A stretch of DNA of 63,711 nucleotides, the filler included, from Reclinomonas americana ATCC 50394 (lineage: Eukaryota), in assembly GCA_048213135.1 (NCBI GenBank). It is 13 parts of 13 records of this genome, joined end to end, with 100 filler letters (N's around TTAATTAATTAA, not from the genome) between each part and the next. Parts side by side here need not be neighbours in the genome. Positions count along the whole stretch, not along the records: positions 53,138 to 59,799 come from AFZH01022628.1; 12 more parts are not named here. One strand, written 5' to 3'. A program made the translations under genes and the position numbers. Positions 8,800 to 62,192 of this stretch are shown piece by piece. The notes below the pieces were generated by a model. It made no database searches. It was not told the DNA's origin and saw only the letters and a list, made by a program, of their open reading frames with translations. Numbering within the stretch: the first letter of the stretch is position 1; every line of letters starts with the position of its first letter.

Positions 8800-11311
<2,512 letters not shown>

Positions 11312-11662: not shown

Positions 11663-13061
11663 TTATCCAATGAGAATCTTCGTCTCGTCGAGGAACTTGT
11701 AGGCCGGGATCTCCAGGTTGAACGGAGCCGGGCCCTTGCGGATGCGTCCCGATGTGTCGTAGTGACTGGGAGGGAAGCAGTGAGCACGTGCGGTGCGGTG
11801 TGATGGGAAGGGAAGCAGCAACACAATAAACACACAAACCTGCCGTGGCACGGGCAGAACTGTGTGTGTGTGTGAAGGAAAACAAAATGATCACAATGGG
11901 TGAGCGTCACACTTATCAGAATACATCTCCATCATCACTCACCCAGCCACCAAAGTCACCAGAGCCACCAATGGGCACGCAACCAAGGTGAGTGCACACA
12001 CCGAGGACAATCTGTCGTCGCCACGATTAGTTTTCTATCTGGCGCAGCGACTGGCCACTGCATAGAGAGAAAAACGCACCAGCCACTCGGGCTTGGGGAA
12101 GCGCTCAGCATCAGTTTGCTGGTGGCGCAGTTCAGCGAGCGGAACAGAAGAGGCAGCCTCGATCTCAGCAGGAGTGCGGTGGCGGATGAACACCGGCTTG
12201 CTGCATGACGCGCAGCACGAGGCACATGAGTTACTTCTTCTCCTTCGCACGTTGCAGTTATCCCACTCACCCCCTCCACTTGACAGTCATAGACGAGCCC
12301 TCAGCCAGATTCGCCACATCGACTTCCACAGAGGCCAACGCCAGCACATCAGCCGACGCCGTCATTCTGCAACGACAACCGTCAGTCACAGAGATTGGGA
12401 GACGACGATGCAGAGAGAGACGCAACGTGTAGATAAACTTGAGCACCATGACACGCACAGCAGCCGAGTACACAAAGCGACCAGTGCCGAGCACAAAGTA
12501 CGCAAAGGTGCGCTTTGTCGGATCACCACCACCTGTGCATCAACAGATCAGTCTGCATCATCGTTGTTATGCGCACGTGTGACACACACACACACAGTCG
12601 CAACTCTTCAGGTACGACAGCTGCTGCTCCTTGTTGTAGTAGCCAGTGTCGAGCGAAGGCGCCTGCGTGCTGGTCGCAAAGAATCGCTGACCATCTGAGA
12701 GAGAGCGCGCGCACATGAGGCCAACAGCTCACAACAAGAGCAGACAAGAGAGAAAAGAGACGCAACTGAGCGACGCTGTGAGCACAGGCGACGACGCGTT
12801 CAGTGCACCACGCGGGCGCAGCAAACTGCAACATTGTGCGTGCGTGTGTGAGTGAGCGAGAGAGAGTGCGACATGGAAATGACATGGTGGGGCACACTTT
12901 TGAGCAGACCTCTGTCGCTGCGGCACGGGCACAGGCTCAACATGCGCCGCCTGCGCAGCCAGTGCGGCCGCACCGCGCGCTGCAGGCACGCGGAACGCAG
13001 TGGTGGCCAGACGCGACGCTGAGCCAAACACAGAGCGAACCACTCCTCCAGAGAACACCAT
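11663..13061 (-). CDS. UQCRFS1: Mitochondrial cytochrome bc1 Rieske iron-sulfur subunit, multi-exon, with presequence
   Basis: [77 protein letters not shown]. Confidence 0.96.
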
Positions 13062-23113: not shown

Positions 23114-26100
23114 ATGGACGAAGGCGACGCACCCTTGTCGCCCTCTGCGTTCTTTGACGCCGAGGAAGAGGAGGAGGAGGATGAGAGCTTTGATGGGAGC
23201 ATTGACGACGACGAGGAGGATGATGAAGGCGATGATGATGATGAAAGTGTGAGCGAGCTGCAGCAGCAGCAAACAGCAGAGGTCATTGATGTGGACGATG
23301 GGAGCGAGGGGAGTGAGGATGGCGATGAGTATCCGGAGGCCGATGCTGGCAGCGATGAGATGCGCCAAGTGTCGTCTGAGGGCGAGGAGGAAGAGGAAGA
23401 GCAAGAGCAACAGCAGGAGCTCGAGGAGCAGTCGGAGGCCGACAATGAGGGTGATGATGAAGATGAGGACGGCGAGGCGCAGGTGGAGACGATGGCGATG
23501 AAGCAAGCGTCGCCCAAAATGGTATGCCGCCGACACACACATTGCTCGTGTACACTCTCTCGCGCTCACTGCGTGTCGTCGTCTGCAGAGTTCTCGGTCG
23601 CCGGCGAGCCTGCAGCCAGTGCCGCACGACTCGCACCCACTGCCCATGATGCTGCTTTCGCCGCCACCACCACCGCCGCCGCCGCCTCCGCCGCCGCCTC
23701 CACCACCGCCGCCACCCGCACATTCCAGTAGTGATGATGTGTTGTCAGAGTCGCACGGTGGTGCATTTGGCGGCGAGCAGGAGCCGCAAGAGGAGGAGGA
23801 GGTGGTGGAGGAGGAAGAGCGCCACATGGTTTCCACTGGCGCACTGCAAGAGTCGTCGTCGTTGGCGTCGGCGGGCAGCGCGACTCCGTCGACACTCTTG
23901 TCGGCGCTCCAGCTCATGTCGCCGCAGACGCCCATGGCGCTCGACTCACCGTTTGTGTCCGCCAGTCGCCTGCGCACTCGTCAGCACCCTGCTGGCGGCT
24001 CCCCGCAGTTGTCGGCATCGGCGTCGGCACCAGCTGGCGACGGGCACGGTGGCGATTTGGCGTCGCCACTTCTGCTGCCGCGGTCGCCGCAACTGCGCGC
24101 CACCAAGAAGCGTCTGCTTGGCGTGAACTCGGACTCGGACGACGACAGTTCGAGTGACGCCGACTCGCGTGCCCCGGAGGAGAAGAAGCAGCGACACGAC
24201 ACGACGCCGGAGTCGTTGGCCGCCCCCGGTGCGCAGCTGCTGACCGACTCGAATCTGACACAAAGCACGCGACAGTGGGTCGCCGATGCCGAGGTTGGTG
24301 TCCCCCCATTTCTGTTGCTTATTGTTGTGCATTGTGCACTCACACGCACACATCACCAGATGTCACTGGACCGCAACAAGGTCGACGAGGCGGTGCGCAT
24401 TATTGATTTCATTTGCCAGCGCGAGCCCAATTACGTGCCCGCTCTGCTCGTGCGCACGTCCATCTTGCAGCGGCAGGAGAAGTTGGATGGTGAGGCCGCC
24501 TGCCTGCTGTATTTCTTGTGTAACTTCAGTTGCTCATGCAGTGCGGCAGAGGCGCTGGCGGTGCTGGATCGTGTGCTGGTCTTGCGACCGATTGAAGTGC
24601 GTGCACTGATCGGGCGAGGCGTGGTGCTGCGCAAGTTGCTGCGGTTAGAGGAGGCCGTTTCGGCACTCGAGCGTGCGCTGGAATTGGATCCCGATTCGAC
24701 AGCGGCAAAGGCCGAGCTCGCTGTGACATTGACCGACTTGGGAACTAATCGGCTCACTCACGGACTGCCAGAGGCCGGCTACCACATGTATGAGCGTGCG
24801 GTCGAGCTCGATCCGCAGTACGCACCGGCGTATTTCAACATGGGCGTCATGTTGCGTCGGATGCGCGCAGATATGAGTGTGTAGAATGTTTCCTCACGCG
24901 ATTTTCATGTGCAGGCTGTCGGACAGCTCCATCCCCGACGACGCGCAGCGGGCGTACGAAAAGGCAATTGAGATGAATCCGACCTACGTGGAGGCACTCT
25001 GCAATTTGGGTGTGCTGCACAAGAATCGAGGTTTGACGACGCGCAGCGCCTGCCTGCATACCCACCACCACCACCTCGTTTTTCTCACATTTTGACCGCA
25101 TACAGGAATGTTGGAGGAGGCGGTGCAGCTGCTGGAGCGCGCTCTGGTACTCAGCCCGCAAGTGGACTTGGTGCGTTCCAACTTGGCGTTGGCACTCTCC
25201 GATCTGGGTTCAGCAGTCAAGGCCAAGGGCGACGCGGCGCGCGCCCTGAAGCTCTACGAGCGCAGCATTATCGTGCTTCCATCGTTTGCGCAAGCGCACT
25301 ACAATATGGGCGTGTGGTACGCGGAGACGGGCGACTTGCAGAGAGTGCGCTATTGCTCCCCTTGACTTGGTAATCTTTTCGCCTCTTTGACTTTGACTCT
25401 TTTGTGCGCAGGCCACCATGTGCTACCGGCTCGCTGTGCAGTTTGCGCCGGACTACGCCGAGGCCCACAACAATCTGGGAGTGGTCCTCAAGGAGCAGGG
25501 CGACTTGCAGGGCAGCGCCGAGGCGTACCATCGGGCGTTGCGAGCGCACGTGCATCCGCAGACCCTCAACAATCTCGGCGTGCTGTACACTCTGCAAGGA
25601 AATGTTGCGTGGTGGCATCTCCTTGTACTCGCGTATTGTCACGGATTTCCATCACTCACTCCTCACGCAGTACGCCGAGGCTTTCCGCTTGCTGACCGAG
25701 GCTGTGAAACTGGATGAGACGTACGCTGACGCGTGGAACAATCTCGGTGTGCTCTATCGAGACGCAGGCCAGATCTGGGAGGCGATTCGCGCGTACTCGC
25801 GTGCCCTGCAGTACGATCCCGACAGCGAGACCGCTGGTCCGAATCGACTCATGGCCATGAACTGTTGCGTTGCTCTTTGTATCTCGCCACTTGTCAAGGC
25901 GCTAGAGGACTTTCTGACTCTTCCCGCACATGCAGACCTGGATGAGCTGTCAGTCAAGACCATTTTCGATGAGCACAAGGCGTGGGGCAATCGCATGATT
26001 TCGCGGTGCGCGCCGTGCAAATCGTGGCCGAATGCAGCATCGTGTGTGCCGTCGGTGGATGTGCGTCTCTCCTCGATTGATCTCCCTGCAGTCCAGGTCG

Positions 26101-26260
26101 CTCACGGTGTTGATGAGCAGGGTGTGTTGCCGTACGGGCGACCACTGGTAATTGGGTACCTTTCACCCGACTTTTTCACGCACTCGGTATCGTACTTTAT
26201 CCACGCACCACTGCGGTGCCATGACCGTTCGCAGTTCCGCATCATCCTGTTGCGTCATCC

Positions 26261-26332: not shown

Positions 26333-28111
26333 AGCGAGGAACAGACATGCTCACTCGTGCAACAGCTACTCGAATGTCCAATACCCCGACAAGAAGACCG
26401 AGATGTTCAAGTCGCTGGGTCACGAGTGGCGCGACGTTTTTGGCCGCTCGGCTGCTGACGTGTGCGACATGATTCGTGCCGATGGCGTCGACATTCTTGT
26501 CGATCTCGCCGGTCACACGGCGCTCAATCGCCTGGATGTGATGGCCAGAAAACCGGCACCTGTCAGCGTGACGTTGCGTGCTTCTCTTCCCCTCGCGCCG
26601 CTGAGTGATGCAGTGTGCCTCATACACAATGTTGCGCAGGTGGATTGGTTATCCGAATACCACCGGCCTCACCACCGTCGACTACCGCATTACGGATGGT
26701 GTCGTGGATCCAGAGTCGACCGAGCAGCCGTACACGGAGCGACTGTGGCGCATGCCGCGAGCATTCCTCTGCTACACTCCAATCGCCTCACCGCCACCTG
26801 TGTCACCGGTGGGTGCAGACTGAAGTGATGCAGCTCTTGACCCTCCCGCATTCATTCACTCTCTCTTGCTCGCAGGCACCGTATGTAAAGAACGAATTCA
26901 TCACCTTTGGCACCTTCAACAGCGTGGCCAAGATGACGCCACGCGTGCTGCGTTTGTGGAGCCGCGTGACGCTGTCGGTGCCGAAGTCGGTGCGTCGCGT
27001 GCATGCTGGTGACCGCGATCGTGTGTGTGTGGGAGTTGATTTGCTGACTCTTTGCGTTTGTTCTGTAGCGTCTGCTTCTGAAATCCAAGACCTTTGCGTG
27101 TGACAGCGTTCGCGAGCGCATGTGGGAGGCCCTGGAGAGCAGCGGCCTTCCGCGGCATCGCGTCGACCTGCTGCCGCTGCTGCCGGACGCCAAGGATCAT
27201 CTCGATTGCTATTCGTACCTCGACATTTCACTTGACACGTTCCCGTGCGTTCTCCGACAACTCCCCTCACTGTGTTCGTTTGGCTCTTCCGTGTGCTCAC
27301 CGAATGTGACACGCAGGTATGCTGGCACAACGACCACCACTGAGTGCTTCCTCATGAGCGTGCCGGTGATTTCGCTGCGCACGGCGTCGAATCACGCGCA
27401 CAATGTCGGTGCGTGAATGAGACTCACTCCTGTGATCTTCTTTGTATCCACCCTTCACTGATTGTCGAATACCAGGCGCTACTCTTTTGCACCATGTGGG
27501 CCACCCGGAGCTGATTGCCGACTCGGAGGATGAATATGTGCGGATTGCGTGCGAGTTGGCCAACGATGTCGAGCGTCTGCTGCGATTGCGTTCCACATTG
27601 CGGTTCGTGTCACACCATGTGTGCGCGTGTGGTCGGGTTCTGCGCGCTCATCATCACTGCAGCGACGAGTTCTTGGCCTCCTCCCTGTGCGATGCACCGC
27701 TGTTCACTGCCGATCTGGAGGACAGCTACATCCAGATGTGGTCCGAGTACCTGCAGCAGTGGGCATCGCAGGCTGACGCCGAACCAGAACCTGCCGCCAA
27801 TGGCGCAGTTCTCCACCTACCTCTCCGGCTACCCATGCCGCCTCCACCTCCTCCACCGCCGCCACCACCACCACCACCGCCATTGTTTTCGTCGCTCACG
27901 ACGCAGTCGTTCACGGCGGTGAAACGAGCACCCATCATGGCGCCATCGTTGCGTGTGCACACCACACACCACACATCGTGGGCGTTGTTCTTCACTTGCG
28001 ACTAACCTGCACTCGTGCACCAGACCCGACGACGACGTCGACTTGCTGTCCGCCGACTTTAGCAGCGGTGGCGGTGACCCGTTTCCACCATACGACGGCG
28101 ACCAACCATAG
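23114..28111 (+). CDS. SPY: SPINDLY-type TPR + GT41 glycosyltransferase (protein O-fucosyltransferase), multi-exon
   Basis: TPRs (YAEAHNNLGVVLKEQG); [79 protein letters not shown]. Confidence 0.92.
26262..26329. repeat. Intronic (TG)n microsatellite
   Basis: Read directly, inside a SPY intron. Confidence 0.95.
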
Positions 28112-28265: not shown

Positions 28266-31200
28266 ATGAGTTCTGCAGCGGCTGGTGGCAGCAGCGGCGA
28301 TGGTGGACCGAGGCCAGCGGGAATGTCCAACAGTGCGCCCTCTTCACGAGCCTCCTCGCGATCCTCGTCGCCAACTCTGGGCGGCAACAGCGCCATGGCA
28401 GTGCTGTCGATCGCCGATCTGCTGCAAGTCGCGGCCATTGAAAACAAGTGGACAGTCGACCTGCTGGAGCACGTCACACGAGTGCTTTCGCGACAGGTTA
28501 CGATCATTCATCATCATCATGCGTGTCCAGTCTCTCTTTTTCTCTTGCTCACACGCACGGTGACACACAGTTCGGCAGTGTTCGTGAGTTGTGCGATCGG
28601 ATTCGCGTGCTGGTGAGCCAGGGAATCGCGGAAGAGTGCCTGCCTCCACTTGTGTTTGAGCAGATTGCGAGTTGTGTTCAGAGCAGTTGTCCATCGCGCA
28701 CCCTCCCTGCTAATGTCCTCGAGAACAGCGGTTGGACGACACGTTCTTGGTCTGCCCATGATGGGTCTCATGCCCTCCAGTGCGTCGTCGTCTGCGCTGC
28801 AACAGCTGGAGCGACCGCGATCGCGACGGTACTCGGCGGCGCGTCGCAGTGCCCTGCTGAGCAGTGGTCAGCTGGCGGATGTCATGCTGGTGGTCAGTGC
28901 CTTCCCAGCAGAGTCGCCTGGTTGTGCGACACCGGACGGGGGTGAGTGTCGCTTTGCGGCCGCGGAGGAGTGGCGCACGGCGGATGCGGTGAGCGAGAGC
29001 GCTGCACCACGGGAGGACTCCAGTCTGCAGTCGCTGGTGAGCGAACTGGCGGTCAAGTTGACGCTCTCCAGCGCACAACAGGACCTCATTCTGTCGGTGG
29101 CCAAGTCGCGGGTTGGTGGCATTTGCGCGAGTGTGGCGTGTTGGCGTCGCTCACCTGTGTTGCTCACTTGCTTCTGTAGTTTGCCACCGCTTCTGAGTTC
29201 CTGCGCGCAAACTGGGACGAGCTGGAGCAGTCTGGCTTGCATCCGTCGCCCGAGGCCGTGTATTGCAAGCCGTTGCCGCCGGTCCTGCTGCGTCGCATTC
29301 GCAGTTGCGATGCGCATGCACTTTCCATGCCCGGCGCCGTGCACTCATTCTCACTGGCGTCTCGCAGAACACCTGACCGACTCGGGAGCATTCGAGGCCG
29401 CTCGTGCCGGTGACTTGGAGGAGCAGGATGCATCGTCGCCAGCCCTCCCGTCACCTCCTCCGATACCCAATGCACAACCAGACTTGAGTGCGTCTTTGGT
29501 GTCGCTTGTGAGTGAGAGTGTCAAATGTGCCTCACTGCTCCTGTCGTCTGCAGGTGATGCCGCGCAGTCGCAACTATTCTTGAACTGCTGTGTGCGTAGT
29601 GTGGCACGACGCACTCTCTCATTCTACCGCGCGTGGGTCTGATCTGCCCTTCCTCCACAGCTGCTCGAGCAATACACAATGGTGTACGACGGATCGATTG
29701 CCGAGTACATCAACAGGTCGCCGTTGGACGCGCACTCGCTGACCGGTGCCGTGCTGCTGCATGTGCTGCCGCCCCACGAGTGCGCCTTGCCACCGTACGT
29801 GATTGTCGCTGCCGAGGCGCGTGATATTGAGACGAACGACACGCTTGTTATTCTGCATGTGCCGCACGACACTGCTGCGCGTCTGCTGACCGAGGAGATT
29901 GGTGCCGGTGCGCTGTGCGTGTGCGTACGATTGCCTACTGGTTCAGAAAAAATAACGGCGATGTTTCTCCTCCAAACAGCGGCGGGCGCTCCACCTTTTT
30001 TCTGGTTCCTCGGCGAGATCATCAATCGGTGTTCGATCCTGTGCAATCTGCGTGAGCCCCGTACCACTCTGGTTGTCTCTGGCGTCCCCAATGTGAGTCG
30101 CTGCTGTGCATGCGCAAGTGGCACAGTGCCTAGTCTCTTACCATGCTCGGCAGCCGGGGTCGCACGACGCCATTCTGAACACACTGGCCCTCTGCAATCT
30201 CCCACTGCCTCGCATCGAGTATTATGACGGTTCGTTGCTTGCAATTATACATGCCACCCCTCTTGTGTGTCACTCAACCGCCACGCGGCGCAGACCTGCG
30301 AGGCGGTGACTGCATCAAGCGGTACATGGCCAGTGAGCAGCGCCTTGTTGCGTCAATCCCTTGTTGCGTTGCATCGGCGGAAGCTCACTGAAGGTGCGGG
30401 GCAGATTGACCTCAATCGATCCGTCAAGTCGGCAGCCATGCGTCTGGCCAAGCCCGGTGCACCGCCACGACCGCGAATATTGTGCGGACACGGACTTCCG
30501 CGGGTGGGTGACTCAGTGCGACCGATTATTAGCAGCTGTCGACGTGTGTTTACCGAGAATCCGTACGACTATCGATTGGTGTTGTTGGGCGAGCGACTGG
30601 AGACGGTGGTGCAGGTACGCGTGCATGTCGTGCGCAGTTTCTTCACGATTCCCTCTCTCTCACATGTCGCTGTGTGCGGGGCACATTCAGGTTCGCACCT
30701 CGACCGGCAGTTATGCGCGGATTGTGGAACGCACCACCACCTACTTGTTCATTGACGTGTTCTGCGACCCGTCGTCGGCGCCGGAGATGTTTGTTCTCGT
30801 GTACTCGGCCTTCGACACGGCGGAGCCAGTCAAAGTGGCGCTCTCGGCCGAGGTGACGATGCAATTTCTTTCCCGCAATCGCAGCGTTGCAGCACTCACA
30901 TACTTCGCATTCACGCGTGTAGGATGCTCCCGTCGGTCGCAGTCACCAGATTCTGTTTCACACACCACTCGAGTTGCTGGAGTTCATGAAGGAGCTGAGT
31001 CTCATGCTGTTCTTGGTCAGCGTACGCGAGCAGGCTGCCGTGTGGTTCCAACTGCACGAGGTGTGTGCGCGTGTATCCGGCCGCGTTGGGAGACCTGTAC
31101 TCACCGAATCACGTCTCCAGTTTGTGATGCGTTCGTTGCAGGGACTCGCCGAAGTCCTGCCGGTGCGTCTCGCTGCCTTTGTTGATAACACGGCATCTGC

Positions 31201-33404
31201 GACAGAGAAGCTCACCATCCTGCAGTGCGACTACCTCATGTTTCTACCGTACACGACGGAGATGATACCGCGCAAGGTGTGTCGTCGTCGGTGCATCCAG
31301 TCCCTTCTCATCCCACAATTGTTGACACCACGTGTGCCATTTTTGCAGACACGCTGGTGGCCATGGCGCGACCCACATCACCGAGGTGGACTGCATTCGC
31401 GTCTCTCACGCCCCAAGACTGCCATGTCGCCGAGTCAAAGCCTGATCGCCGATCTGCTGGACAATCCGGCCAACTTTTCTGTTGCGTGTCACTTTCTTCT
31501 GTCATTGCGATTTGTAGTTTCTCACGAGATGGGGTGCGCCGCTTGTATCAGCGATTCCACGAGGTCGCTGGTGGTACCCAGCTGTACGCCATTCTCGAGT
31601 GGTATCTGCAGCATGCGTGGTTCAGTTCAATATTTGTGCGCAAGCTGCTGCAGAAGAAGCACTCGCAGCCGAAATCCATTGGTCTGTGCAGTGAGCCGGT
31701 TTCGCTGATCGTGATGTTATCTCTCGTACAGCCACTCACATCTCCATCGATGCAGCTGAGTTGGAGGGCTTTGAGGACTTTTCGGTGTTGTGGAACGAGC
31801 AACGATTGACCAAGATCGGAACGCAAATCGAACTGCTGCAGGAGGCCTTCCGCGTGTACCTCTACCTGACCACACCGCCTGTCGATGCTCACGACCAGTG
31901 GACGGTGTTCCTGGTACAGTGTGATTTGGCACAGGCAAATATGGGGGTTGCGTTGTCGTCGGATGTGAAACAAGGGTGTTTCATGTTCCCTGTTGTTCTC
32001 GGATGTCGAGGCTGACTGGCTGTTTTCCCCTCCCGTTCAGCAAGTGGACTGTGAGCAGCACTACTCTCGCCGTGTGGCACGGTGTGCTCGATTGGTGCAA
32101 GAGAAAGCCGGCGAACTCGGCTACTTTAGCGACATTCGTGGCGAGGAGTTTGGTGTGCTGGAGCAGCTATTTACCTCCATGCGCGGCCAGGAGGATTATT
32201 GCGGCACACATGGCTCCGATCAGGCGGTTCGGAATCGCCTGAGTCACCAAGCGAGGAGTTGCGTGTGTGTGAGTGTACCTCAGTGCAGCGTGCGATTCAC
32301 TCACATGGTTCACGACAGTCGACTTGGGTGTGATCAACATTATTCGAGAGGTGCGCTATCGGCTGACACAGGAGGCGCAGTACGTTGGTACGTTTTCGTG
32401 TTCCACTTTGCAGTGCGATGTGTGTACTGATTGGCGTGCTTGCTGCAGTGGTCATTGGTCCGGCAGGAGTTTTGTGGCGTTGCTTTGTGTCGGTGGTGGT
32501 GGTGGTGGCTTCATTCTTGCTGACACTTGCACACAGAGTGGCAAGTCGCAGCTCACACGCTTGTGTGACGTGGACTTTGTACCGATTGATGTCGTGCCGA
32601 CAGATAGCGTTGCGTGCCAGTCGCACCAGTTCACGAAACCGTGCACTCTCGACTGACGTGTTTTTCCTCTGCAGTTCTCAATACATAATCTGCTCCTCGA
32701 TGAGCTGACGGAGGCTCTCACGGTGGCTCTGGTCGACACGCCACCACTGGCCAGTCGCGGCGATTACTTTTGGAATCTGCGGCGAGTAGTCAACGCCGCC
32801 TCCTTTGTGGTGGTGGTGTGGCCCGACATTATCAACAATCCATTCGACGACGATGCCGACACTGACGAATGGCGCCGGTACTTGCAGTATGTTGCGTACT
32901 TTCACTGCCGACCTGCGCGAGTTGTCCACAAGGTGATGACCGCGGTGGTGGTGGTGGTGGTGGGTGCAGTTGTTCCAGTATTTCGACGGCCGTCTGCTGT
33001 GCTTGCTCAACAAAATGGACGAACGTGCACGCCAGTGTTATGTGCGCGGTGAGACGGCGGATGAGATGGCGCAAATGATGCGCGACGTGTATGCCGAGGA
33101 GTCGGCCAAACTCAGCGAGGCGACCAACTGCCCACACATCAGTCGCTTCCTCCGCATGAGCGTGCTCGACGACTCGGTACTGCAACTCAGTGCACCGCGT
33201 GCGACCATGTTTCGTGAGGCCTGTGACCGACTCGTTCGAGAGGTGCGATACCACACCACGCCCTTGCACTTGTTGCTCTCTCTCTCTCTCACACACTCTC
33301 TCTTTTCCCGCGCACAGCACGCTCACCTGCAGGTCGTCGGTCTGTCGCATGTCAAGTCCATCATCACCCAGAGTCTGTTCGCCGTACCGCCAACATTCTC
33401 ATGA
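28266..33404 (+). CDS. Large multi-exon protein with a C-terminal P-loop GTPase-like domain
   Basis: Spliced C-terminus: YVVVIGPAGSGKS (G1), VVPTDS (G2), VALVDTPP (G3-like), LLNKMD (G4), FLRMSVLDDS; N-terminal part not recognised and not every junction traced. Confidence 0.6.
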
Positions 33405-33452: not shown

Positions 33453-36400
33453 TTACAGGGTCGTATTCAGTCCCGAACTATGCTGCATCACTAGCGTCTT
33501 CATCCGCGACACAGCGTCGGCCACCTGTAATGCGACACGGTCAGCGGCAGGAGAAGTAAGAAGGCAAGTGGAGATCAACAACGACAAACCAATGTGCTTG
33601 CGCCTAATGAATCGAGATCCCGTCGCACCTCGCTCAACATCTCGGGCGACGACACAGACCGAGTCTGTGCATGGTACGAGAGCCCAGATGCCGACCGATG
33701 TGATTGCTGATCCGGCGATCCATCCTGTGACTTTTACGCCAGAATGAGCGACACACAACAACACTCCATTGATTTCAGGTTGCGGCGACTCACGCGTGAC
33801 AGGCTGTGTATGGAAGCGCGATCGGCCTCCAAGGCCTCCACCGACCGGCGCAACAGATCGGCCTCCCGCTGTGTCGTGTTCAGCCGTGATTCCTTCTCCT
33901 CCAGTTCTGATGCAAGCCGTTCCACCTGCAACGTCAGTGCCACGATGCGATCGCGTTCCGCGGCGGCAGAGGTGTCACCCTCACTCTACGCCAGCCGACG
34001 CGTTGAGCAACGAACCAGAGCTGCGCTCACAACTCACAGGGCAACCAACAACAACCACATACCGGGCGAGGTCTCCAGAGAGGTGTCCGCGACGTCTCAT
34101 CCCGCCGACCAGCCAGCTGTCGTCGCAGATCGAGAACTTCGTCGGCCAGTCGGTCGCGCTCGGTGGAAATCTGACAAAGTGTGTGCCACGCACGTCAGGG
34201 AGGACACGGATGCGAGTGCCATCCACATTGTCATACCGCATCGATTCGCCGAATGAAATCCTGCCGCAGCCGTTCCAAACTCGACGAGTACGTCATCGAC
34301 TGCGTCTCTTGTCGCTGTGCCATCTCTTCGTTGGCGGCCTCCAGTGCCTTGACTCTTCTTCGCAGCTCGCCACGTTCAGCGTCCAGACGCGACGTGCGCT
34401 CACCGACCGTAGACTGCGAAACAACACGAGTGTGAGCCAACAGCTATCGATACAGACGCCCGCGGGNNNNNNNNNNNNNNNNNNNNNNNNNNNNNNNNNN
34501 NNNNNNNNNNTTAATTAATTAANNNNNNNNNNNNNNNNNNNNNNNNNNNNNNNNNNNNNNNNNNNNAGAGAGAGAAGGAAAAAGCATGCACGTATCGGAT
34601 ACTCACCGACTCGGCCTTGCCGCGCAGTTCCTGCGAGCGGCGCTGCGTGTTCTCGAGCTCGGCCGCCAGGTGACGCACCTTGGCACGGAGCTCTTCATTG
34701 TCGCGTCGCTGCAGATCCATGTCGGTGAACTCGCGCTCCAATCGCTGCACAATTTGCTCGGTTGAGTCGAGTTTGTCGAGAAGCTGCAACGCACGTGCGC
34801 TGTCAGCACGAGCACCAGAGCGCCACAGAGTGGCGTTCCAGCAAACACACACGCAACTGCCTGATGCGAAGCCACGAGATCAGCGTTCTTGCCCTCCAGG
34901 ACGAGGACCTTGCGCTGTGCTGTCTCCGCCTCCTGCGCCATCTGCGGCAGCGAATGAGACACCACTGTACGGATGTGTGAAGTAAGGCAGCGGAAGCACA
35001 AAAGTACCCGAGTGCGTGCCGTCTCGGCCTCAGTGCGTTGCACTTTGAGTGTCACCAACGAGTGCTCCGTGGCCTCCAACTGCGTCAGCACCTGTGCAGA
35101 TCGGATAGTCCATGTGAAAAATCGTGCCGAGTGCTCGCCTATGCAAGCTGGCACAATCGAATACCTTCTCGCAGTCACTCGTCTTGACGGCCAGATCCAG
35201 TCGCGTTCGACGCAGCTGATCCTCCAGCGACTCAACTGCCGCGTGAAGCGTTCGCACCTCCTGAACCAACTGCACACAACACGGAGTACGTGAGCGCGCC
35301 TTGCACACGCTAGACAAGGAAGCTCACACGCCATGATAACGCACCGTCTCACGCTCGGCGTTGATCTCAGCCGCAGAGCGCTCCGAACCGAGGCGCAACT
35401 GCTCCTCGGCCACACGAAGTTCCTCCGAGGCTCGTTCCAGGCGACGTGACAGCTAACACAGCAGGCAGTGACATGGCGTGAGCTTCACATCTCCGTCCAC
35501 CACAGTGCATCTCTGTAGTTTGCACGCAACTCGGTCGCACTCCGCCTCCTTGTTGCGCAAGTCCGTTTGCAGTCCTTCCACAGTGGTGTCGACAGCACGG
35601 AGCGCAGCTCTGACGTCCTTGAGTTCCGATTGCAACTGCGAAGGCACACAAAGTAAGCTACGTGTATCCTTCTATTGATGGCACAGAGCACGCCACTCAC
35701 CGCGTCGCACTCGTCCTCCCGAGACCGCAGCTCCTCGGCACGCATCGCAGCTTCGGCTTCAAACCGCGAGGCCGCTGCGCGTGCCTTGGCCACCTCGCTG
35801 CGCAGGTGCGCCATCTCCTCTTCATCGCCACCATTGTCGGCGCGCCGCCGTGTTGATCGCTTGGCATTTACCAACTCTGCACGCACATCGGCGAGTTCCT
35901 TGCGCACCTGAAGCAGTGACGAGTCAGATAATGACAAATCGGAATGCATCGATCGTCGGAAATGAGAATCAAACCTCTTCCAGCTCGGCGACAGACAGTT
36001 GCAGTTGACTGCGCGCACTACGCACATCGACGCGCAGCTGTACACAACTCATGTGAGCACGAAAAAAAGAGAGTTACTAGAAATGACGGCGAAGCGACAT
36101 GCCTGCTCGTTTTCGATTTCACATTCATCAGCGCGCTCACTCTCTCCCCTGCAGTCCTGCTGGCTCTGTATTGTGCGATGCTATAAGCGCGGGGTACACA
36201 CACGAGAGCGAGAAAGAGACAGAATGAGTATTGTACCTTGGCCAGCGCTGACTCCAGTGAACTCGCCCGCTCTGCCTCACGTGCAAGCTCTCCTCGCGTC
36301 TATGCACTCCAATAGTGAGACACAGCTGCAATGTAAGAGGACGGTCGCCCTCACACATCACCAACCTGTTCCACAGCAGCAAGTGCCTCACGGAGTTGCT

Positions 36401-43368: not shown

Positions 43369-45786
43369 TTAGCAGAAGACGTTGCGCAAAATGTACTTGA
43401 AGGTCGCAAACAGTCCGAGCATGCGGAAGGCAGTAATGACGCCGGTGGCCTGCGAGGGACGTGAGACACGGGGGGGAGAGAGCGCGCGCGCACTTCTGTC
43501 TGACTGCACTTCACCTGCGCCATGGTCACTCCCATCAACAGCGTGTCCTGGCCAGTCATCCACAGATTCTCGATCGGCGTCTTGCAGTCGAGGCGCTCCA
43601 TGACCTCCCACTTGCTGCTCACACGCGAGCGGGGTGAGCGACACAGAGAGGAGACGCAAATTGTGCGTAGCGGAGACGTACCAGAAGCGCTCAGGTGACG
43701 GGTTGAGGCCAATGGGCGTACCCTTCGACGCGCCCAGCCAGTTCTGAATGCTCAGCGGAGTCGACACATCGACCTGCAGAGGCACAACAGAGAATTCAGT
43801 CGCGAGGTGGTCGACACTGAAGTAGTGGTGGCGGGATTGACGCAACAAAGTCCTCGGCGTCGCGGAGCTGCGGGAAGTGCTTGTACAGCACGGCCAGGCC
43901 CCAGTCACGCCACTCGCGCTTGACGGCCTCGTACTCGGCACCGCGGTGCTGTGCAATACGAAAGAGTGAGCCACCAAACACACCAGCACACAGATCAGTC
44001 GCCTGTTGTCGCTCACCTCTGGCGTCTCGTCCTTCCACTTGAGGAACCACTCGTAGCGGGCGGGGATCAAAATCTGCACCGTGGTCTTGTCGGGGTGGTG
44101 CGTGGCCCAGTCGCGGTCCTTGATGGAGGGGAAGGTGATCATGACGGGTGGGAACTCCACAGGTCGCTCGCGCAGCGGGTCCGCCGAGTCCATGAATCTG
44201 CACCACTACAGGTGTGAGACAGCGTGTATCACACATGTTTCGTTTCTATCAAGGAAACAAACTCACCGGCGCAACGGCGCCACCATGTCGCCGTCGGGTG
44301 TGGTGGGGTAGTGCCACACGTTGGCGTTGGCGAGCTTCAAGCTCTTCTCCGAACCACGGAAACCGGCGTTGATCATGACCATGCCAGGTCCGTCGTCGCA
44401 GCCCGGCAGCTTCAGCGGAATCTTGTTGCGCTCAATGACTGCACGGCGCACAAGGTTGCGGAAGGTCACGTGGTATCCAGCCGAGCTGACGATGTACTTG
44501 CGGGCGTTGATGGTGGTGCCCTCGATGCGCACGCCAGTGGCACGGTTGCTCTCATCCACAATGATCTCGTCGACGCGAGCCGCGCAGAACACTGCACCGC
44601 CAGCATCCTCAATCACCGGCACCAGGGCCGCCGCCATGCTCTCCGATCCACCACGCGGGTAGTATCCACCATAGCGCGGGAAGCCGCGGAAGACTGAGGT
44701 GGCCAGGAAGAACGAGCAGGTGTCCGGCGGAGCGCCAGTGTCCAACCACAAAGCGTTGATGATGGCCACCACACGCGGATCCTTGATGCCGATCTTGGGG
44801 TCGGCCAGACCCTCAGTCGCTACACGACAAGCGCGTGAGTCGGAGAAAACTCCCTCTGTGCGCACACACACACTCACCGGTCTTGGAGGCCCAGTACTCG
44901 AAACCGCCAAGGAAGAGCTTCCAGAAGGGGCGCTGCAGCCACACGGGGAAGGCCTTGCACATGAAGAAGAGGAAGGTGGTCTTCATGAACGAGGTGGAGA
45001 CGCTCATGTAGCGCTCCAGAGCCTCGCGCTCGTGCGGGAACTGGTTCATCAGGTCGGGGATGTGGGCCTCCTTTGGACGAATGTTGAACGGGGTCGACGA
45101 GTCGCCGAGGTACACCTTGTCGTAGATGCCGAGCGGATCATCCTGACCCATCAGCTCCAGCTGGACGGGGTTGTGGCCAATCGACACCTGCAGATCGCAG
45201 TCAGCACCGGCACAACCTCGCCTCCCAGCACCACCGCCGACGCAACATGGAACAGCGGGCCGTGCCACGGCACCGTGTAGTGCAGACCCGAGTCGTACTT
45301 GTAGTTGGCGCCAAGCTCAAACATGTGCGAGCTGCCAAGCGCCGTCGGAAAAACACGTCACGAGTGTGAGAAGTCAGCGAAAAAATGTGGAAACAAGCGA
45401 GAGACAACTCACCCGCCGCCGACTGTGGTCGCATGCTGCTCGAGCACCACCACACGATTGCCAGAGCGCGCCAGAATCGCCGCCGTGGTCAATCCCGACA
45501 TGCCGCCTCCAACGACCACCACATCAACATCCTTTGGCAGCTTGGACGAGTGGAACTTGGTGCGCAGGCGCAGCGGGTTCCAGGCCTTCTTGGGTGGCAC
45601 CGAGCCGCCCACATGCACCACTTCACCATCGCGGTTGCGGTACGGAGCAGCGACCCACACAGCGAGCGCGATCCAGGTGGCGAGTGAGAGCAGAGTGCAC
45701 CATGCGCCCAGCCAGCCCAGGTAGAAGAGGCCGTAGGTGGAGCCTAGAGTGACCACAAAGTAGGCAATCGCCGTCAGGCGGATCAT
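43369..45786 (-). CDS. Retinol saturase / phytoene-desaturase-family FAD oxidoreductase with N-terminal membrane segments
   Basis: KFHSSKLPKDVDVVVVGGGMSGL...VVVLEQH..GG..H.F...YDSGLHY; GGYYPRGG; ITFPSIKD; STPLS; TPIENLWMTGQD. Confidence 0.85.
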
Positions 45787-50790: not shown

Positions 50791-50847
50791 GGTGACGCGA
50801 GGAGGAATTGACGCGAGCGGGGCAGGACGATCTCGCACCCCTTGTTT

Positions 50848-52166: not shown

Positions 52167-52198
52167 CGAGAGGACGGCAAATGTTCGGATCGATCGCT

Positions 52199-53037: not shown

Positions 53038-53182
53038 NNNNNNNNNNNNNNNNNNNNNNNNNNNNNNNNNNNNNNNNNNNNTTAATTAATTAANNNNNNN
53101 NNNNNNNNNNNNNNNNNNNNNNNNNNNNNNNNNNNNNTGCACTGGCTGGCTGGCTCATCCGTTCCTCACTCATCAATCACAG

Positions 53183-56100
53183 GTCGACAACGCCGATGCC
53201 GTGTTCAAGTTGTGGCGTCACTCGGGCTACGAACCCGGCAAGAAGGTGCCGACGAACTACCCCGAGGAGTATTTCGGCCGCTACACCGTCAAGCAGGAGC
53301 TGATTGTGATGCTCATTGGCCGTCTGCGAAGTGACGACTTGTACCAGCAGACGTCGTACTACCCGAGCCCACACCACCGCTCAGTGGCGCTCGCCACCCA
53401 GGCCGCCATGCTGTACATTTTGCTGTACTTCGCTCCGCACATTTTGAGTCGCGAGGGAGTTGCGTCTCACCCACCCCTTCTCACCTGTGTGTTGGCGCGA
53501 ACGAGTTCCTGACTCGTGTCGCGTGGCGCAGGCTGTCATGCGTGAAATTGTCGACAAGCATTTCCCCGACAATTGGGTCATCTCCTTCTGGATGGGCTAC
53601 ACTGTCGATCTGACCACTGCCTGGGCCGGCTACAAGGCCGCCTCGGATGCGCTGAACAACATTGTGCAGCCGCTGCAGATTCGCGAACTTGGTGCGTGTC
53701 CCCTGGCGAGATGCAGTACTTCTTTCTCTCTGTGTGTGTCTCATTTTGCGCACCAGCCGTGTCACACTGGGACCGCATGGTCTCGCTGCGAGAGGAGGTC
53801 GCTCACTACCTCACGGAGGGCGTGCTGGTGGAGGACTTTGTGCTCGACAACATCAGCCGCATGTTGAACTGCCTGCGCAACTGCAACGTCACCCTCCGCT
53901 GGATCATCATGCACCGCATTTGCGAGAAGAAGAAGATTGCCGAGATCGTGTTGGGTGGCCCCGGTCCGCAGGAGATCCTCGTGCTGCTGCTGAACGTGTC
54001 GCAGTTCGAGTTCCTGTTGCGTGAAATGTTCCAGAAGCTGCTCGACGAGAAGGTCGACAAGTGGACGGCCAACCGTTCGGCGGCCTCGTCCAAGATGTCG
54101 GAGCTGGGTGCGTTGACTTGTGTCGTCTTGCCACCACACCGCCCATCACTCAACATGTACTAACATGCCACGCGCAGCGGACTACTACGGTGGCGAAAAG
54201 GTGCTGTCGGCCAAGAACAAGGACGAGCAGCTGATGAAGTGGTTCCAGGACATTGCACAAAAGATTACAGAGCTGGACTTTGACGACTCCACGCTGGCTG
54301 GCCGCAAGATTCAGGAGCTCATTCGTGCGCTGGAGGAAGTCGAGCAGTTCCACCAAGTGGAGTCCAACCTGCAAGTGCGCCAGCATCTGATCGACACCCG
54401 CGAGTTGCTGCGCAAGATGATCCGCATCGTCAACGTTCGCGAGGAAGTGCTGGTCACTATTGCGCAGGTGCGAGACGAACCATCCCGTGTTTGCATTCTG
54501 CGCAATTGCATGATCATTCACTCGTGCGTGCGAACAGGTCGGCGATATTTCCTACGCCTGGGAGATTATCAACGCGTACGTGCCACTCATGCAGGAAATG
54601 CTCAAGCAGTTGCGTCGCTAGGTCGCCATCTTGTCCTCTCTCCGCTGCCGTCACTGACCCCCAATCCTGCCGCTGCTCATGCAGAGACCCGTACATTGTG
54701 ATCAAGCTGCGCTCCACCTTCCTCAAGCTGGCCTCCATGATGGAGATTCCGCTGGTGCGCATTACGCAGGCCAACTCACCCGACTTGGTCTCCGTCTCGA
54801 ACTACTACTCTGGTGTGTCTGCTACGCGCCCCCCCTTATTTGTGAGGTTGATGTCGGCTGCTGACTCGCGCGCGCTCATGCTGTTGCAGGCGAGCTGGTG
54901 AAATTCGTGCGCCGCGTGCTGGAAATCATTCCGATCAGCATGTTTGAGCTGTTGAAGGAGCTGATTCATCTGCAAACCAACGAAATCCGCGAGTTGCCGA
55001 CTAGATTGCCCAAGGCCGAGTTGAAGGAGTTGCGTTTTTCGTTTTTGAGAAGGCGGGTGAGGGAGCAGTCATCTCACTTGTTGCCGTTCGCAGCTACGCA
55101 CAACTAGAAGAGCGCTATCGCTTGGCCCGATACACCCACCAAATCTCCAAGTTCACGGAAGGCATTCTGGCTATGGAGACAACGCTGATGGGTGTTGTCA
55201 GTGTCGACCCGAAGCAGCTTCTCGAGGACGGTATCCGCAAGGTGTGCATTTTCCCCCTCTCCCACTATGATTGCCCTCGCTTCTGAATTGTGTGTGCTCG
55301 GCAGGAACTTGTGCGCCAGTTGGCCAGCTCGCTGAACCAGATGTTGGTGTTCCGCTCGTCGCGTGTGGACGAGTTCGAAGACCGCCTGCAGCAGCTCGGC
55401 ACGACACTGCGCGGTGTGTTCAAGTCCTTTGAGTACATTCAGGACTTTATCGGCATCTACGGGTGCGTGTGTGTGTGTGCGCTCGTGCATGTGTCTGTTG
55501 TGGTCAACTTCTTCCTCACCATCTTGCTTGCGGTGGACAGTCTGCGCATCTGGCAGAACGAAATGTCGCGCACCATTGCATTCAATGTGGAGCAGGAATG
55601 CAATCGGTACGGAGGCAGAGTGTGCGCTTCATGGACCTCATGTGCCTCACCCGCTCCGCGCCCACAGGTTCTTGCGCACCAAGGTGCTCGACTGGCAGTC
55701 CAAGTACCAGAGCGAAGTGATTCCCATTCCCCGCTTCCCGCCCACCGATGAGTTGCGTCCCCATGCGGCCATCACCTTTTCCCCCGCACGACCTCATGGT
55801 GCCGCCGCTCGTAGACACTCAACCAACTTTATGGGTCGCCTGACGCGCGAGCTTCTCGCGCAAACGGATCCGCGTCGCGTCACATACGTCGACCCCATGA
55901 CTGCCTGGTTCGACAACTCTGGACGGTGTGTATCTCGGATGTTGTCTTTGTTAGTCCTCTGTTCCCCTGTTCCTTTGTGTGTTCTCATCCCGACGAGCAA
56001 CCGTGCAGCGAGATTGTGGGCATCCGCACCTTCAGTCTGGTGCGCAGCAGTGTCGGAGTGTTTGGTCTCAGCGGCGTCGACAGTCTGCTCTCGTTCATGA

Positions 56101-57328
56101 TTGTCGACTGTCTCCAACGCTTCTGCACGCACTACGGCCGTGAGGTGACTTGTTTGGTTGCCTGTGTGTTCGTGTGTGTGTGCCACTGCGCGCGGTCTCA
56201 TCTAGGCAGCGCAGGTGGATCGTCAGCTGAAGGAGCACCTGAAGGCCATCAACGAGATGTGCAACCAGACGAACACGCTCAACATGGAGGGTGCTCGTGT
56301 GTTCTCGCACTCCTCGCACAGACTGCACAAGCAGTTCGGCTTTATCACATGTGCGTTCGATCTTGAGCTTTTTGCTGTTTGACTTGCTGTGTACTCAATT
56401 TTCCCTCTTGCGCAGCTGCCATTTTGTTTGTCGGTCAAGCGCAGTTTATTCGGCGGCACATTGCCAACGAGCTCAATGTTGCGTTCCTGGTTCCCTGCGC
56501 ACCACACAAGTCTGCCTGCTCACTTGTGTGTGCCGACAGTTCCTGTGCAAACTCGACTCAACGTCGCTCTCGTGTGCACTGGATGCCTTCAACATGTCGC
56601 TGATGAAGGACATTCGCGCCCACTACCACAGGTGAGTGTGCCTCCTCCCTCCCCTTCCTGCGTAGAGCTCCCTATTGACAATCCCGCGCGTCAGCCCCGA
56701 CACGTACCACTATCCACCGGAGGAGAACACGCTGCTGTCGGATCTCACCGAGTTGTTCCAGTCGAGTGGCATGGATCCGGCGTTCGCCAAGATCTATATC
56801 ACGCACGACCCGCTGCCGGAGTTTGCGACCATGTTGTCGCTGTATGTGGCCTACCAGTTGTCGCGCATGCAGTATGACCCGCGTCTCGGTACGTTTTGAC
56901 ATGTTGGCGGTGTCTTGGCTGTCTCTTCGTGTGCGTATTCATCACCATTCGTGCAGGAACTCTGATTGTTCGCACCAAGAACGACCAGTTCGACGGCTCG
57001 GTGTTGGCCGCCGGCGTGGCCACGCTGCTCAAGCAGTTCCACTACTCGACCACGGTGGAGTTTGTGACGCTGCTTGGACACCACGTCAAGTGCCTGGTCG
57101 AGTCGGCGCAGGCGCAACCACGGTTTGTGCGCTTCCCCGTCCCGTTGCTCGTAGTGAAAGTGCTGAAGTGTGTTTCGCAGTGATTCCAAGGCACCGGTGG
57201 TGCCGGTCGACGTGACCAACACGCTCGTGTTCCTGGAGCACTTGTGTGAGCTGGCCGGCATTCCGCGCAAGGTGGTGGCCGATGTGATCCCACCAGCAAT
57301 TTTTGACTTGCACACCGCCGCACTGTGA
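53183..57328 (+). CDS. WASHC5: Strumpellin (WASH complex subunit 5), 5' truncated, 18 internal introns traced
   Basis: [101 protein letters not shown]. Confidence 0.95.
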
Positions 57329-57450: not shown

Positions 57451-58024
57451 TCAGTCATCACCGTGTGCCGGCAACAGGCCCAACTTCTTGTCAAAGTCAT
57501 CCAAATCGCACTTGACTGTGCGCGCTTCATCGTCTTTTTCACGCTTCTGTGCCTTGAAGTAGTAGCTCCGTTCCCAATACGCAGCCGACACACCAGTGCT
57601 ATCCACCGTCTCCATGGCATCCTCACCTGAGCACACCAATAAGTACACAGAACGAGAAACCTGAAGGAAGCTTGCATGCAGGCAGGAAAAGAAGACAGAG
57701 AAGCTCTCTTTCCCCCTACACGCAACTCATCATGTCGGCCACCTTTCGCCGATTCATATCCGCGCTCGCCACCGTCGACCCGGCCTTGAAGAACTCTGGC
57801 GCATACTCCGACCGCGCATACGCCTTATCGCCCGGTCTGCGCTCCGGCACACCGCCTCGCCGATCACCAACGCGTACCTTTCGCGTCATCGACTCCTCCA
57901 GCACCGACAGACCACTCGACGGCGTCACGGTGCGGATCTTGCGGTCCATGTGCGCCGGATCCATGCTATCAGTCACTGCAGGCAGGAGACGAAGACGAAT
58001 GTCAGCGGCGCGACACACACACAT

Positions 58025-58668: not shown

Positions 58669-59799
58669 ATGGCGCACAGTCACGCTCGTGGAGGCCTCGA
58701 CGTGCTTCGCCATGCGCCTGTTGATGCAGCGCATCCGCAGCAGAATCTGGAGGCGCACTTGGTCAGCACTCTGGGGCGACTGATGGAGTGCCGGTCAGTT
58801 GTTGTTTGATGTTGGTGTTGCTGTGTTCTTCTCAGTCTCTCACTGTGTGTGTCTCTCAGTCCACTGGAGCCGGCCAAGTACTTGGACGGCTTCTCGCGGG
58901 CGACCACGCATGGTGGCGCGCTGGTACCGCCTGCTGGTGTCGGTCCAAACGTACTGCCGAGTCAGCAGGAGAAGAAAGAGGTACTTGCTAATTGCACACA
59001 CACACACACGCGCGCGCCTACCTCTTGCACTCACCCGCACACTCCATGCAGGGCCCATCGGTGGACACCACCGAGAGCACCAGCGATCATCAAGCGTACA
59101 TTGAGCTGATTTACGTTGCGTTTTGTCTCTCTCTCTCTCTTACACTCTCTCTTGTCCCTCGTTGCCGACGTGCTCCACTGCGCAGCCGCCGAAGAAGGCC
59201 AAGGAGAAGGCGGCGGAGGGCGGGGAGGACAACGAGGAGGAGGCAGAGGCGGAGGAGGAGAAGAACGAGGGCAATGTGCCGGATGTGGTCAGTGAGCTGG
59301 GCCTGGCGGAGCAGGCGGGCTACGGGCTGCCCCTGGACGAGGTGTACCGCCTGCAGCTGTCGTTGAAGAAGCTGGTGGAGAAGAATCCGCTGGAGAGCGT
59401 GCGCTTCTTTGGCAAGATCTTTGGCACGCAGCGCAACTATTATGTGGTGGAGGCCGTGTACAAGGAGGGCAGCCGTCCGCGCGCCGAGTATCTGCGTTGC
59501 GTGCTGCTGTCGACGATGGGGGGTGCGGGAAAGTGATGGTGTGGCTGACTGCGATTGTTGCAGCGCCGGAGCCGGTGGAGGGCGAGGAGCCACCGGCAGA
59601 GGAGGCGGAGGAGGGTGATGGCGATGCACCTGAGGGCGAGGAGGCTGGCGGCGAGAAGAAGGCATGCACGGCGTCGGTTTCCTTTTCTCCTCTCCACGTG
59701 CGAGTGACGACTGACCGTGTGTGTGTGTGTGTGCAGTCAACAAAGACGCCGCCGGAGGAGAACCTCGGCACGAACCAGTTCCGCTACTTTGTGTGCAAT
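58669..59799 (+). CDS. Flagellar radial spoke head protein RSP4/6 family, 3' truncated
   Basis: EQAGYGL...LSLKKL...VRFFGKIFGTQRNYYVVEA; PPEENLGTNQFRYFVCN. Confidence 0.92.
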
Positions 59800-59899
59800 N
59801 NNNNNNNNNNNNNNNNNNNNNNNNNNNNNNNNNNNNNNNNNNNTTAATTAATTAANNNNNNNNNNNNNNNNNNNNNNNNNNNNNNNNNNNNNNNNNNNN

Positions 59900-61917: not shown

Positions 61918-62192
61918 CTGATGAAACTACAGGACAGAAGCGCGAGGCGAGGAAGAACACAGCCCTTGTCGGCTCTGCTGCGTGGAGGACAGAAGGAGAC
62001 ACTGTGTGCACCTGGGCTGCACCGCTCGCTCGTGATAGGAAATCATTATTGCCAAAAAAACAAACATCCACCATGCACTCATTACTTCGCCACCAGCTCA
62101 CAAATGCACCCAAAAAACATCACACAAACGAAGCATGGAACGTTGACAATAGGAAGAGAAGCAGAGAGAGAGAGAGAGAGGAAAGGGAGAGC

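Follow-up and report, generated by a model that had tools for sequence, protein, structure and literature searches.

Two forms of 5' splice site (donor) occur side by side in a 64-kb stretch of the genome of Reclinomonas americana ATCC 50394 (63,711 nucleotides of joined parts from assembly GCA_048213135.1; this whole stretch is called the window below), and the form that an intron carries goes with the last base of the exon in front of it. After an exonic G the donor is a standard one (class C), whereas after A, C or T (together, H) it is typically a shifted donor of the GTTGCGT type (class S). This is seen in the introns of a strumpellin gene, of a SPY-like gene and of a katanin-like gene, which we could place with homologues, and also in introns predicted ab initio in the rest of the window. 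The shifted class represents roughly 30-35% of the introns in this window and is conditional on a last exon base other than G. Our confidence is high that both classes are real donors.

Introns fixed by homology

Introns were placed with a custom protein-to-DNA spliced aligner, which accepts any GT..AG intron of at least 40 nt and does not score the donor motif. The homology-fixed set consists of 37 introns, 17 of them in strumpellin, 13 in the SPY-like gene and seven in katanin. All of them are on the plus strand, and donors are written here with the last exon base (position -1) before the bar.

The strumpellin gene (53.1-57.3 kb, named from Pfam) was aligned to two homologues, P0001 and P0002, which are 48-54% identical to the query exon. 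From 53459 to 55752 the introns obtained with the two are the same; the P0001 alignment ends at 55926 and the P0002 alignment extends to 56889. We left out two alignments that span the N mask lying upstream of 53182, as well as the unsupported donor a|GTCGGC at 57102. Four class S donors, all a|GTTGCGT, were given by both homologues: 53459..53465 (intron 53459-53531), 54609..54615 (intron 54609-54684), 55029..55035 (intron 55029-55093) and 55752..55758 (intron 55752-55814). A fifth, t|GTTGCGT at 56478..56484 (intron 56478-56539), was given by P0002 only, and here the residue at the junction is aromatic under the GT-AG reading, as in the homologue. The exception among the introns after a non-G base is t|GTGCGT at 56351. 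An earlier annotation, made from the sequence alone (the first-pass annotation), had counted GTTGCG in five of the six strumpellin introns after non-G, and the alignment returns the same five, each after A or T. The 11 standard donors (53692, 54108, 54468, 54813, 55242, 55463, 55607, 55926, 56145, 56632 and 56889) all follow an exonic G and begin with GTGCG, GTGTG, GTGAG, GTACG or GTGAC. Thus the rule that GT followed by a purine is used after exonic G stands, whereas the count given for it earlier, 11 of 12, becomes 11 of 11 in the homology-supported part.

The N mask near this gene is one instance of a regular feature. There are 24 blocks of 44 N in the window, arranged every few kb in pairs 12 bases apart (for example 3028-3071 and 3084-3127, or 53038-53081 and 53094-53137). 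One pair interrupts the strumpellin gene and another the radial-spoke-head gene described below.

For the SPY-like gene (TPR plus GT41, 23.1-28 kb, Pfam) three homologues were available, and we kept 13 introns after leaving out low-complexity rows at the N- and C-terminal ends. All but one of the kept introns (12/13) are backed by at least two homologues. The class S donors are t|GTTGCGT at 24851..24857 (two to three of the three homologues), at 25604..25610 (two of three) and at 25864..25870 (two of three), where a conserved tyrosine is retained only under the GT-AG reading, and c|GTTGCGT at 26573..26579 (two of three). A further t|GTTGCGT at 26249..26255, which opens an intron of 117 nt, is backed by one homologue of three and by both ab initio parses. 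Therefore the GTTGCG donors that had been proposed at 24851, 25604, 25864, 26249 and 26573 were all recovered by alignment, but the one proposed at 27948 appears in no parse.

The AAA domain of the katanin-like ATPase (8.6-11.3 kb, Pfam) has seven introns, supported by 11, 11, 11, 11, 11, 10 and 7 of 11 homologues; its N-terminal part (8600-9950) is unconserved, gave no consensus and was left out of the validated set. Three of the donors are variants of class S with the G-T at +6/+7, namely t|GTTTTGT at 10240, a|GTTTCGT at 10390 and a|GTTCCGT at 10490 (to 10496), each with 11 of 11 homologues. The fourth class S donor, t|GTTGCGT at 10849..10855, has 10 of 11. Among the katanin donors listed by the first-pass annotation, 10849 is thus well placed and 9860 less firmly so (two of 11 homologues plus the ab initio parses). 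The donor at 9738 is used in two of 11 alignments, although with two different acceptors, and in the ab initio parses, while 8919 was in no parse. We also observed that the query exon 10087-10389 contained an in-frame intron of 69 nt (10240-10308), so that most matches to it came in two pieces. With P0008 and P0010, residues 1-101 matched unbroken, at 65-69% identity, as though the gene models of a related genome had read through the intron.

The position of the cut was also considered. A cut one base further in would leave the G in the exon and give a non-GT intron, and it would produce the same protein at seven of the 14 validated class S junctions, 10240 being one of them; 25604 and 55029 do not discriminate either. 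However, it would replace residues conserved in homologues at 10390 (3/4), 10490 (4/4), 10849 (4/4) and 25864 (2/2), where only the GT-AG reading preserves the conserved L, P and Y and the tyrosine, respectively, and it would also replace the aromatic residue at 56478. Therefore this candidate was ruled out, and cleavage is placed at H|GT.

In the 37 homology-fixed introns a G-T at +6/+7 was found in 0 of 20 introns after exonic G and in 14 of 17 after A, C or T (p=1.1e-7). In all 20 introns after G the conserved G-T was either at +5/+6 or absent, and their +3 base was G or A in 17 cases and T in three (GTTTGA, GTTCGT, GTTGGC). After A, C or T the +3 base was T in 14 of 17, comprising eleven GTTGCGT and the three katanin variants, and the remaining three donors were GTGCG(T/C). 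The association of the -1 base with T at +3 is significant in this set as well (Fisher p=5.6e-5).

Exon end and donor register in the window

The window has a G+C content of 58% and its intron-rich genes are densely packed on both strands. Gene names were taken from Pfam matches of long open reading frames (ORFs) and exons. Two ab initio parses were made. The first is a donor-agnostic Viterbi gene parse, which was given GT and AG, an acceptor matrix, codon usage and a branch-like motif and nothing else, and the second is based on a position weight matrix (PWM). Intron length was limited to 150 or 130, because parses that permitted long introns fused neighbouring ones. A first codon training on long ORFs was discarded, as its table was strand-symmetric and dominated by the FN3-repeat gene; this Ser/Thr-rich gene (5174-8485) is open on both strands for more than 2 kb. 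The donor-agnostic parse must be regarded as noisy, because it recovered exactly only 24 of the 37 validated introns. Outside the validated genes we took the 43 introns that both parses called identically. Together with the 37 homology-fixed introns they form a curated set of 80, with 35 introns in class C, 28 in class S and 17 others. One member of this set, at 62673 on the minus strand, is probably false, since it lies inside a bacterial-type ORF.

The dependence on the last exon base was found again in the ab initio introns, where none of the 24 donors after G was shifted, against 13 of the 19 after non-G (p=7e-7). In the curated 80 there were 44 unshifted and no shifted introns after G, as opposed to 9 unshifted and 27 shifted after non-G (p=6e-14). 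These 27 include GTGACGTG at 40515, an intron with G at +3 whose GT at +6/+7 is due to chance. The association between the -1 base and T at +3 that had been put forward earlier was also obtained in this set: donors without and with +3 T numbered 35 and 9 after G, 8 and 28 after non-G (p=3.7e-7). Four of the eight donors after H that lack the +3 T read GTGCG, all with the full GTGCG(T/C), as compensation would predict. After non-G, GTTGCG is preferred over GTGCG by about six to one (around 24 donors versus 4). GTTGCG is actually the commonest donor hexamer of the curated set (24/80), and GTGCGT accounts for 12.

The complete donor-agnostic parse, with 156 introns, gave the same picture with more noise. 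Unshifted and shifted donors were 63 and 4 after G, 57 and 32 after non-G (p=6e-6); for absence and presence of +3 T the figures were 52 and 15 against 44 and 45 (p=4e-4), and outside the three validated genes 37 and 11 against 32 and 32 (p=0.006). GTTGCG was by far the commonest donor hexamer in this parse and all of its 29 occurrences followed a non-G base; a cruder first pass had 14, also all after non-G. Taking any parse, GTTGCG was called as a donor 37 times, and only two of these followed G, both in the PWM parse alone. The first-pass annotation had counted about 30 GTTGCG donors by hand. At the roughly 8,300 GT sites outside the set of called donors, the shifted pattern was present in 7.9% after G and 6.1% after non-G. 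Such background sites show it about equally in both contexts, and therefore the association is not a general property of the window sequence.

The motif itself is enriched. Counting both strands, the window has 49 copies of GTTGCGT, against 16.47±5.10 in dinucleotide shuffles (3-fold, and 0 of 100 shuffles reached 49), and inside gene spans the heptamer was found 43 times in sense and twice in antisense. There are 106 GTTGCG hexamers in the window. The 37 called as donors have at -1 A16 T12 C7 G2 and a T at +7 in 31 cases; the other 69 have A21 T19 C16 G13 at -1 and a T at +7 in 18.

The donor logos of the two classes differ in tightness. Class S (28 introns) is almost invariant, with G28 T28 T28 G24 C27 G28 T26, preceded at -1 by A12 T12 C4 G0. 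Class C (35 introns) varies more, with G27 A7 at +3, C16 A9 T8 at +4, G30 at +5 and T25 at +6. Positions +3 to +7 of class S (T G C G T) are the modal +2 to +6 of class C. In other respects the classes are alike: the median intron length is 70 nt in class C and 68.5 nt in class S, and a C stands at -3 of the acceptor in 33/35 and 26/28 introns respectively. A YTNAY branch-like motif is present in 36 of the 37 validated introns, compared with 29% of random 37-mers.

We ran the same aligner on 12 intron-bearing environmental strumpellin loci, with 59 introns, as a control. T at +3 was found in 1 of 26 introns after G and in 3 of 33 after non-G (p=0.62), the latter using GTAAGT, GTACGT or GTATGT. 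Hence the pattern was not seen in these other eukaryotes. Among 73 loci from a metagenome scan no close relative was found (best identity 55%), and over proteins and loci together the best strumpellin relatives reach 48-55% identity.

Further class S donors were called ab initio across the window. On the minus strand they are a|GTTGCGT at 7464..7470 in the FN3-repeat gene (5.2-8.5 kb, minus, Pfam), called by the donor-agnostic and PWM parses; c|GTTGCGT at 12420..12426 in the Rieske/UCR_TM gene (11.7-12.7 kb, minus, Pfam); a|GTTGCGT at 35524..35530 in a coiled-coil gene; t|GTTGCGT at 43846 and 45246 in an FAD-oxidoreductase gene (43840..45246); and a|GTTGCGT at 57720..57726 in a SASRP1-like gene. 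On the plus strand they are t|GTTGCGT at 30347 and 32891 in a gene with 19 introns (30347..32897), t|GTTGCGT at 41041 in a phosphoribosyltransferase gene, a|GTTTCGT at 42935 (to 42941) in a cap-methyltransferase-like gene, and c|GTTGCGT at 59115 and 59496 in the radial-spoke-head gene (59115..59502; gene from 59.0 kb, plus, Pfam), whose Radial_spoke match is on the exon between the two. The phosphoribosyltransferase, cap-methyltransferase-like and FAD oxidoreductase genes were also named from Pfam. As to sites listed before our analysis, the parse that knew only GT..AG chose 7470, 12604, 32891, 41041, 59115 and 59496, whereas 32609 and 41691 were called in the PWM parse but not in the donor-agnostic one. 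The shifted GTTGAG at 41262 was found in ab initio calls only, and the GTTATGT "at 61515" is on the minus strand (61509-61515) and outside the validated set.

The radial-spoke-head gene deserves a comment, as a single exon block (59276-59488) was recognisable in it by tblastn with three homologues and no further part of the gene turned up downstream. What lies there instead (region 59046-62390) is a minus-strand ORF, together with the GTTATGT of 61509-61515. We counted no radial-spoke intron as validated, because the homologue alignments were inconsistent (scores 225-305) and only this block could be recognised.

Some other features of the window concern the annotation more generally. At 49473-53035 (minus) a GNAT/FR47-like acetyltransferase is present as three paralogues in tandem, whose C-terminal exons are much alike. 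The ORF at 62494-63711 (minus) is intronless, has 406 codons, runs off the window end and matches SBP_bac_5, a bacterial solute-binding family, with E=4e-86; it is here that the parse put an intron, 62549-62673. This ORF could be bacterial DNA joined to a eukaryotic contig, or a transferred gene. Several introns start within (GT)n runs (for example 44865-44871; 53025-53031, minus; 21028-21034), where the donor is ambiguous in two-base steps, and CACACA/TGTGTG are the commonest hexamers of the window.

Recognition of the shifted donors

The donors can be summarised as two GT-AG forms chosen by the last exon base. After G the form is G|GU(G/A)NGU, which is relaxed and appears mostly as GUGCGU. 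The form that follows A, C or U is a near-invariant GUUGCGU (rarely GUUNNGU), in which the same G-C-G-U block is one base further into the intron. When GGUGCGU (from G|GUGCGU) and GUUGCGU are aligned from the first G, they differ only in the second base, which gives the geometry of a shifted register and equally that of a bulge at +2/+3. In the shifted register, the 5' end of U1, a small nuclear RNA (snRNA), would pair with class S one base out of its usual position, so that G+1 would replace G-1 opposite C9 and U+3 would replace U+2, with one mismatch or bulged U left. The U6/U5 steps that follow might then fix the cut at the one GU available. This reading could be carried out by an ordinary U1 or by one whose 5' end has changed. 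Class S may be tight and class C relaxed because, with one pair lost, all the other positions must match. The sequence features of shifted-register sites are found in class S: the block is in register one base in, canonical pairing is weak (-1.4 kcal/mol, modelled) and G is present at -1 in 0 of 28 introns. We give about even odds to recognition through some form of shifted pairing with U1.

Duplex models were calculated with the 11-nt human U1 5' end as printed in PMC4856993; the other U1 variants are hypothetical. With the human 5' end, G|GUGCGU gave -7.8, H|GUGCGU -2.5 and H|GUUGCGU -1.4 kcal/mol, and a hypothetical U1 matched to GUGCGU gave -15.7, -9.2 and -7.5 kcal/mol in the same order. 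Only with an A at position 8 of a hypothetical U1 was H|GUUGCGU the best, at -11.8 against -7.1 kcal/mol for H|GUGCGU. Set against the preference of about six to one for GTTGCG, these energies make it likely that either the C9 pair outweighs the nearest-neighbour energies, for example via U1C or LUC7 contacts, or U1 here has another 5' end. As a speculation, the partner base of the strong C (+4 in class C, +5 in class S) could be a G. An Rfam scan of the 64-kb window gave 0 matches and hence no snRNA within it.

Several points weigh against a reading by shifted pairing. A shift of ordinary U1 does not predict the GTTGCG preference after non-G, because the H|GUUGCGU duplex is weaker than the H|GUGCGU one. 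The -1 bases of class S (A12 T12 C4 G0) do not mirror the -2 bases of class C (A15 C8 G9 T3), contrary to what a pure shift would predict. Moreover, every intron is placed by homology or by frame and coding logic, the data come from a single window, and 43 introns come from our own gene finder, with the recovery of 24/37 given above. The proposal of the first-pass annotation that the shifted register is a major splicing mode is therefore supported in its geometry, frequency and non-G condition, but the ordinary-U1 duplex energies do not explain the preference. In its widest form, the proposal would be a genome-wide binary donor code, in which the last exon base picks one of two registers and about a third of introns use the +1 register, served by a U1 with an obligatory C9:G pair or by a second U1 complementary to GUUGCGU. 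We put this forward tentatively, at slightly less than an even chance.

The same energies bear on the idea that a U1 fully complementary to GUUGCGU exists, either as a dedicated second U1 or as the sole U1 with its 5' end altered (A replacing C at position 8, for example). Class S would then be its canonical substrate and class C that of the other. Only such a complement makes H|GUUGCGU best in the model. The near invariance of the seven class S positions, including the C at +5 in 27/28, resembles full Watson-Crick pairing, and A, a joint top base at -1 (12/28), could lengthen the helix. There are also precedents in Entamoeba, Mastigamoeba and Physarum, according to the passages on U1 in the preprint 10.1101/2022.06.08.495308. 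However, the U1 variants that we modelled are hypothetical, and the same passages have Thecamonas and Mamiellales, lineages with +4C donors, keeping a standard U1. We consider this explanation rather unlikely, though a serious rival. We regard as less probable still a bulged U (+2/+3) within the canonical register of the U1, and possibly the U6, helix. In that case G+1 and U+2 would pair normally, GCGU would pair as +3 to +6, and the absence of G at -1 would only follow from selection being relaxed where -1 is G. The two Us being identical, sequence fits a bulge and a shifted register alike and does not separate them; a bulge +3 (or +2) register has been validated in human cells (PMC4856993, in the part on bulges), and many donor variants are tolerated after -1G, so that GUUGCGU might be rare there by dilution alone. 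Nevertheless, a bulge gains no pair over H|GUGCGU and leaves the preference for an extra U after non-G unexplained, and a bulged site would itself benefit from G-1:C9, although class S has G at -1 in 0/28.

The pattern could be an artefact of gene modelling, with true donors elsewhere or non-GT introns cut one base off, and in favour of this we have the imperfect ab initio parse and the seven of 14 junctions where both cuts give the same protein. However, two to 11 independent homologues give the same boundaries without a donor prior, the residues conserved at 10390, 10490, 10849 and 25864 survive only the GT-AG reading, no such pattern came from the same aligner in the 12 other loci, and the heptamer has a strand bias of 43:2; an artefact is thus very improbable. 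Class S introns could also be a mobile, introner-like family with its own GTTGCGT end, since the 5' heptamer is highly uniform. This candidate was rejected and is scarcely credible, as there is no similarity past +7 (over +8..+37, class S introns have a mean pairwise identity of 0.262 and class C introns one of 0.261; the highest value is 0.53) and lengths and 3' ends match class C. Introns of the minor spliceosome (U12-type) have the 5' signal RTATCCTT and a TCCTTAAC-like branch near the 3' end; the class S logo, GTTGCGT, has neither the A at +3 nor the TCC at +4..+6, 36 of the 37 validated introns carry the YTNAY motif as major-class introns do, and this type was discarded. A single near-universal atypical donor, as in Entamoeba, was likewise rejected, as two donor classes coexist in the curated 80.

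Shifted donors and known systems

A compensatory dependence between -1G and positions +4..+6 is known in 5' splice sites, and gene finders use it, for example, in maximal dependence decomposition. Our data share with it that a missing -1G is offset by a stronger intronic match, as in the four GTGCG(T/C) among the eight donors after H without +3 T. However, the known form keeps the register, whereas here the chief offset is an inserted base that moves it. Judging from the donor sequences, what would be new is that donors of noncanonical-register type are a major class under a simple exon-dependent rule. A literature search for a GTTGCG, GUUGCG or GTTGCGT donor class gave nothing relevant among the matches listed, and such a class may be described in a genome paper.

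Noncanonical U1 registers, found so far at a small fraction of human sites, matter for the prediction of splice mutations. If our reading is true, this genome would offer a natural, high-frequency case of noncanonical-register splicing. With about 30% of introns under the rule that the last base is not G, it would be a natural experiment on how U1 measures the 5' splice site and hands it over to U6, on how work is divided among U1 variants, and on how exon coding constraints shape intron ends. It is also worth taking into account that gene finders trained on one donor matrix will place many introns of this genome wrongly; the PWM parse displaced several strumpellin boundaries relative to the homologue alignment.

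The rare shifted or bulged U1 registers of mammals, which the first-pass annotation had taken as established, are indeed experimentally proven in human cells, and validated noncanonical registers of all kinds amount to about 1.5% of human 5' splice sites, as stated in the passages of PMC4856993 on these registers. Shifted-register sites were described by Roca and Krainer in 2009, as summarised there. They share with class S the GU, the extra U and then the usual +2..+6 block, the U1 pairs moved by one position and the cut still at the GU. They differ in that they are rare and their block is AAGU, whereas here 24-28 of 80 introns belong to class S, with a GCGU block tied to a non-G exon end. 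Sites with a bulge at +2/+3 (Roca 2012 / Tan 2016, in PMC4856993) also have one extra nucleotide at +2/+3 and are back in register downstream, but they are far rarer than class S is here, and those passages of PMC4856993 mention no link to the -1 base.

Donors of the GYGCGY or +4C type in Mamiellales and Thecamonas resemble our class C, with GTGCGT, a CTGAC-like branch and short introns; for Ostreococcus, the passages of PMC2483917 on its introns give an atypical GTGCGTG consensus. A second GTTGCGT class is not mentioned in those passages or in the corresponding ones of the preprint 10.1101/2022.06.08.495308, whose text lacks the words register, shifted and bulge. The same preprint, where it deals with U1, reports GUUUGU donors with a U1 reading ACAAAC in Entamoeba, GUGCGC donors with ACGUAC in Mastigamoeba, and standard and modified U1 copies together in Physarum. 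Entamoeba and Mastigamoeba thus share with our window donors with +3 U or +4 C, which are explained there by a changed pairing region of U1, and they indicate that U1 can co-evolve with the donor. However, they have one near-universal atypical donor each, whereas here there are two registers set by the last exon base.

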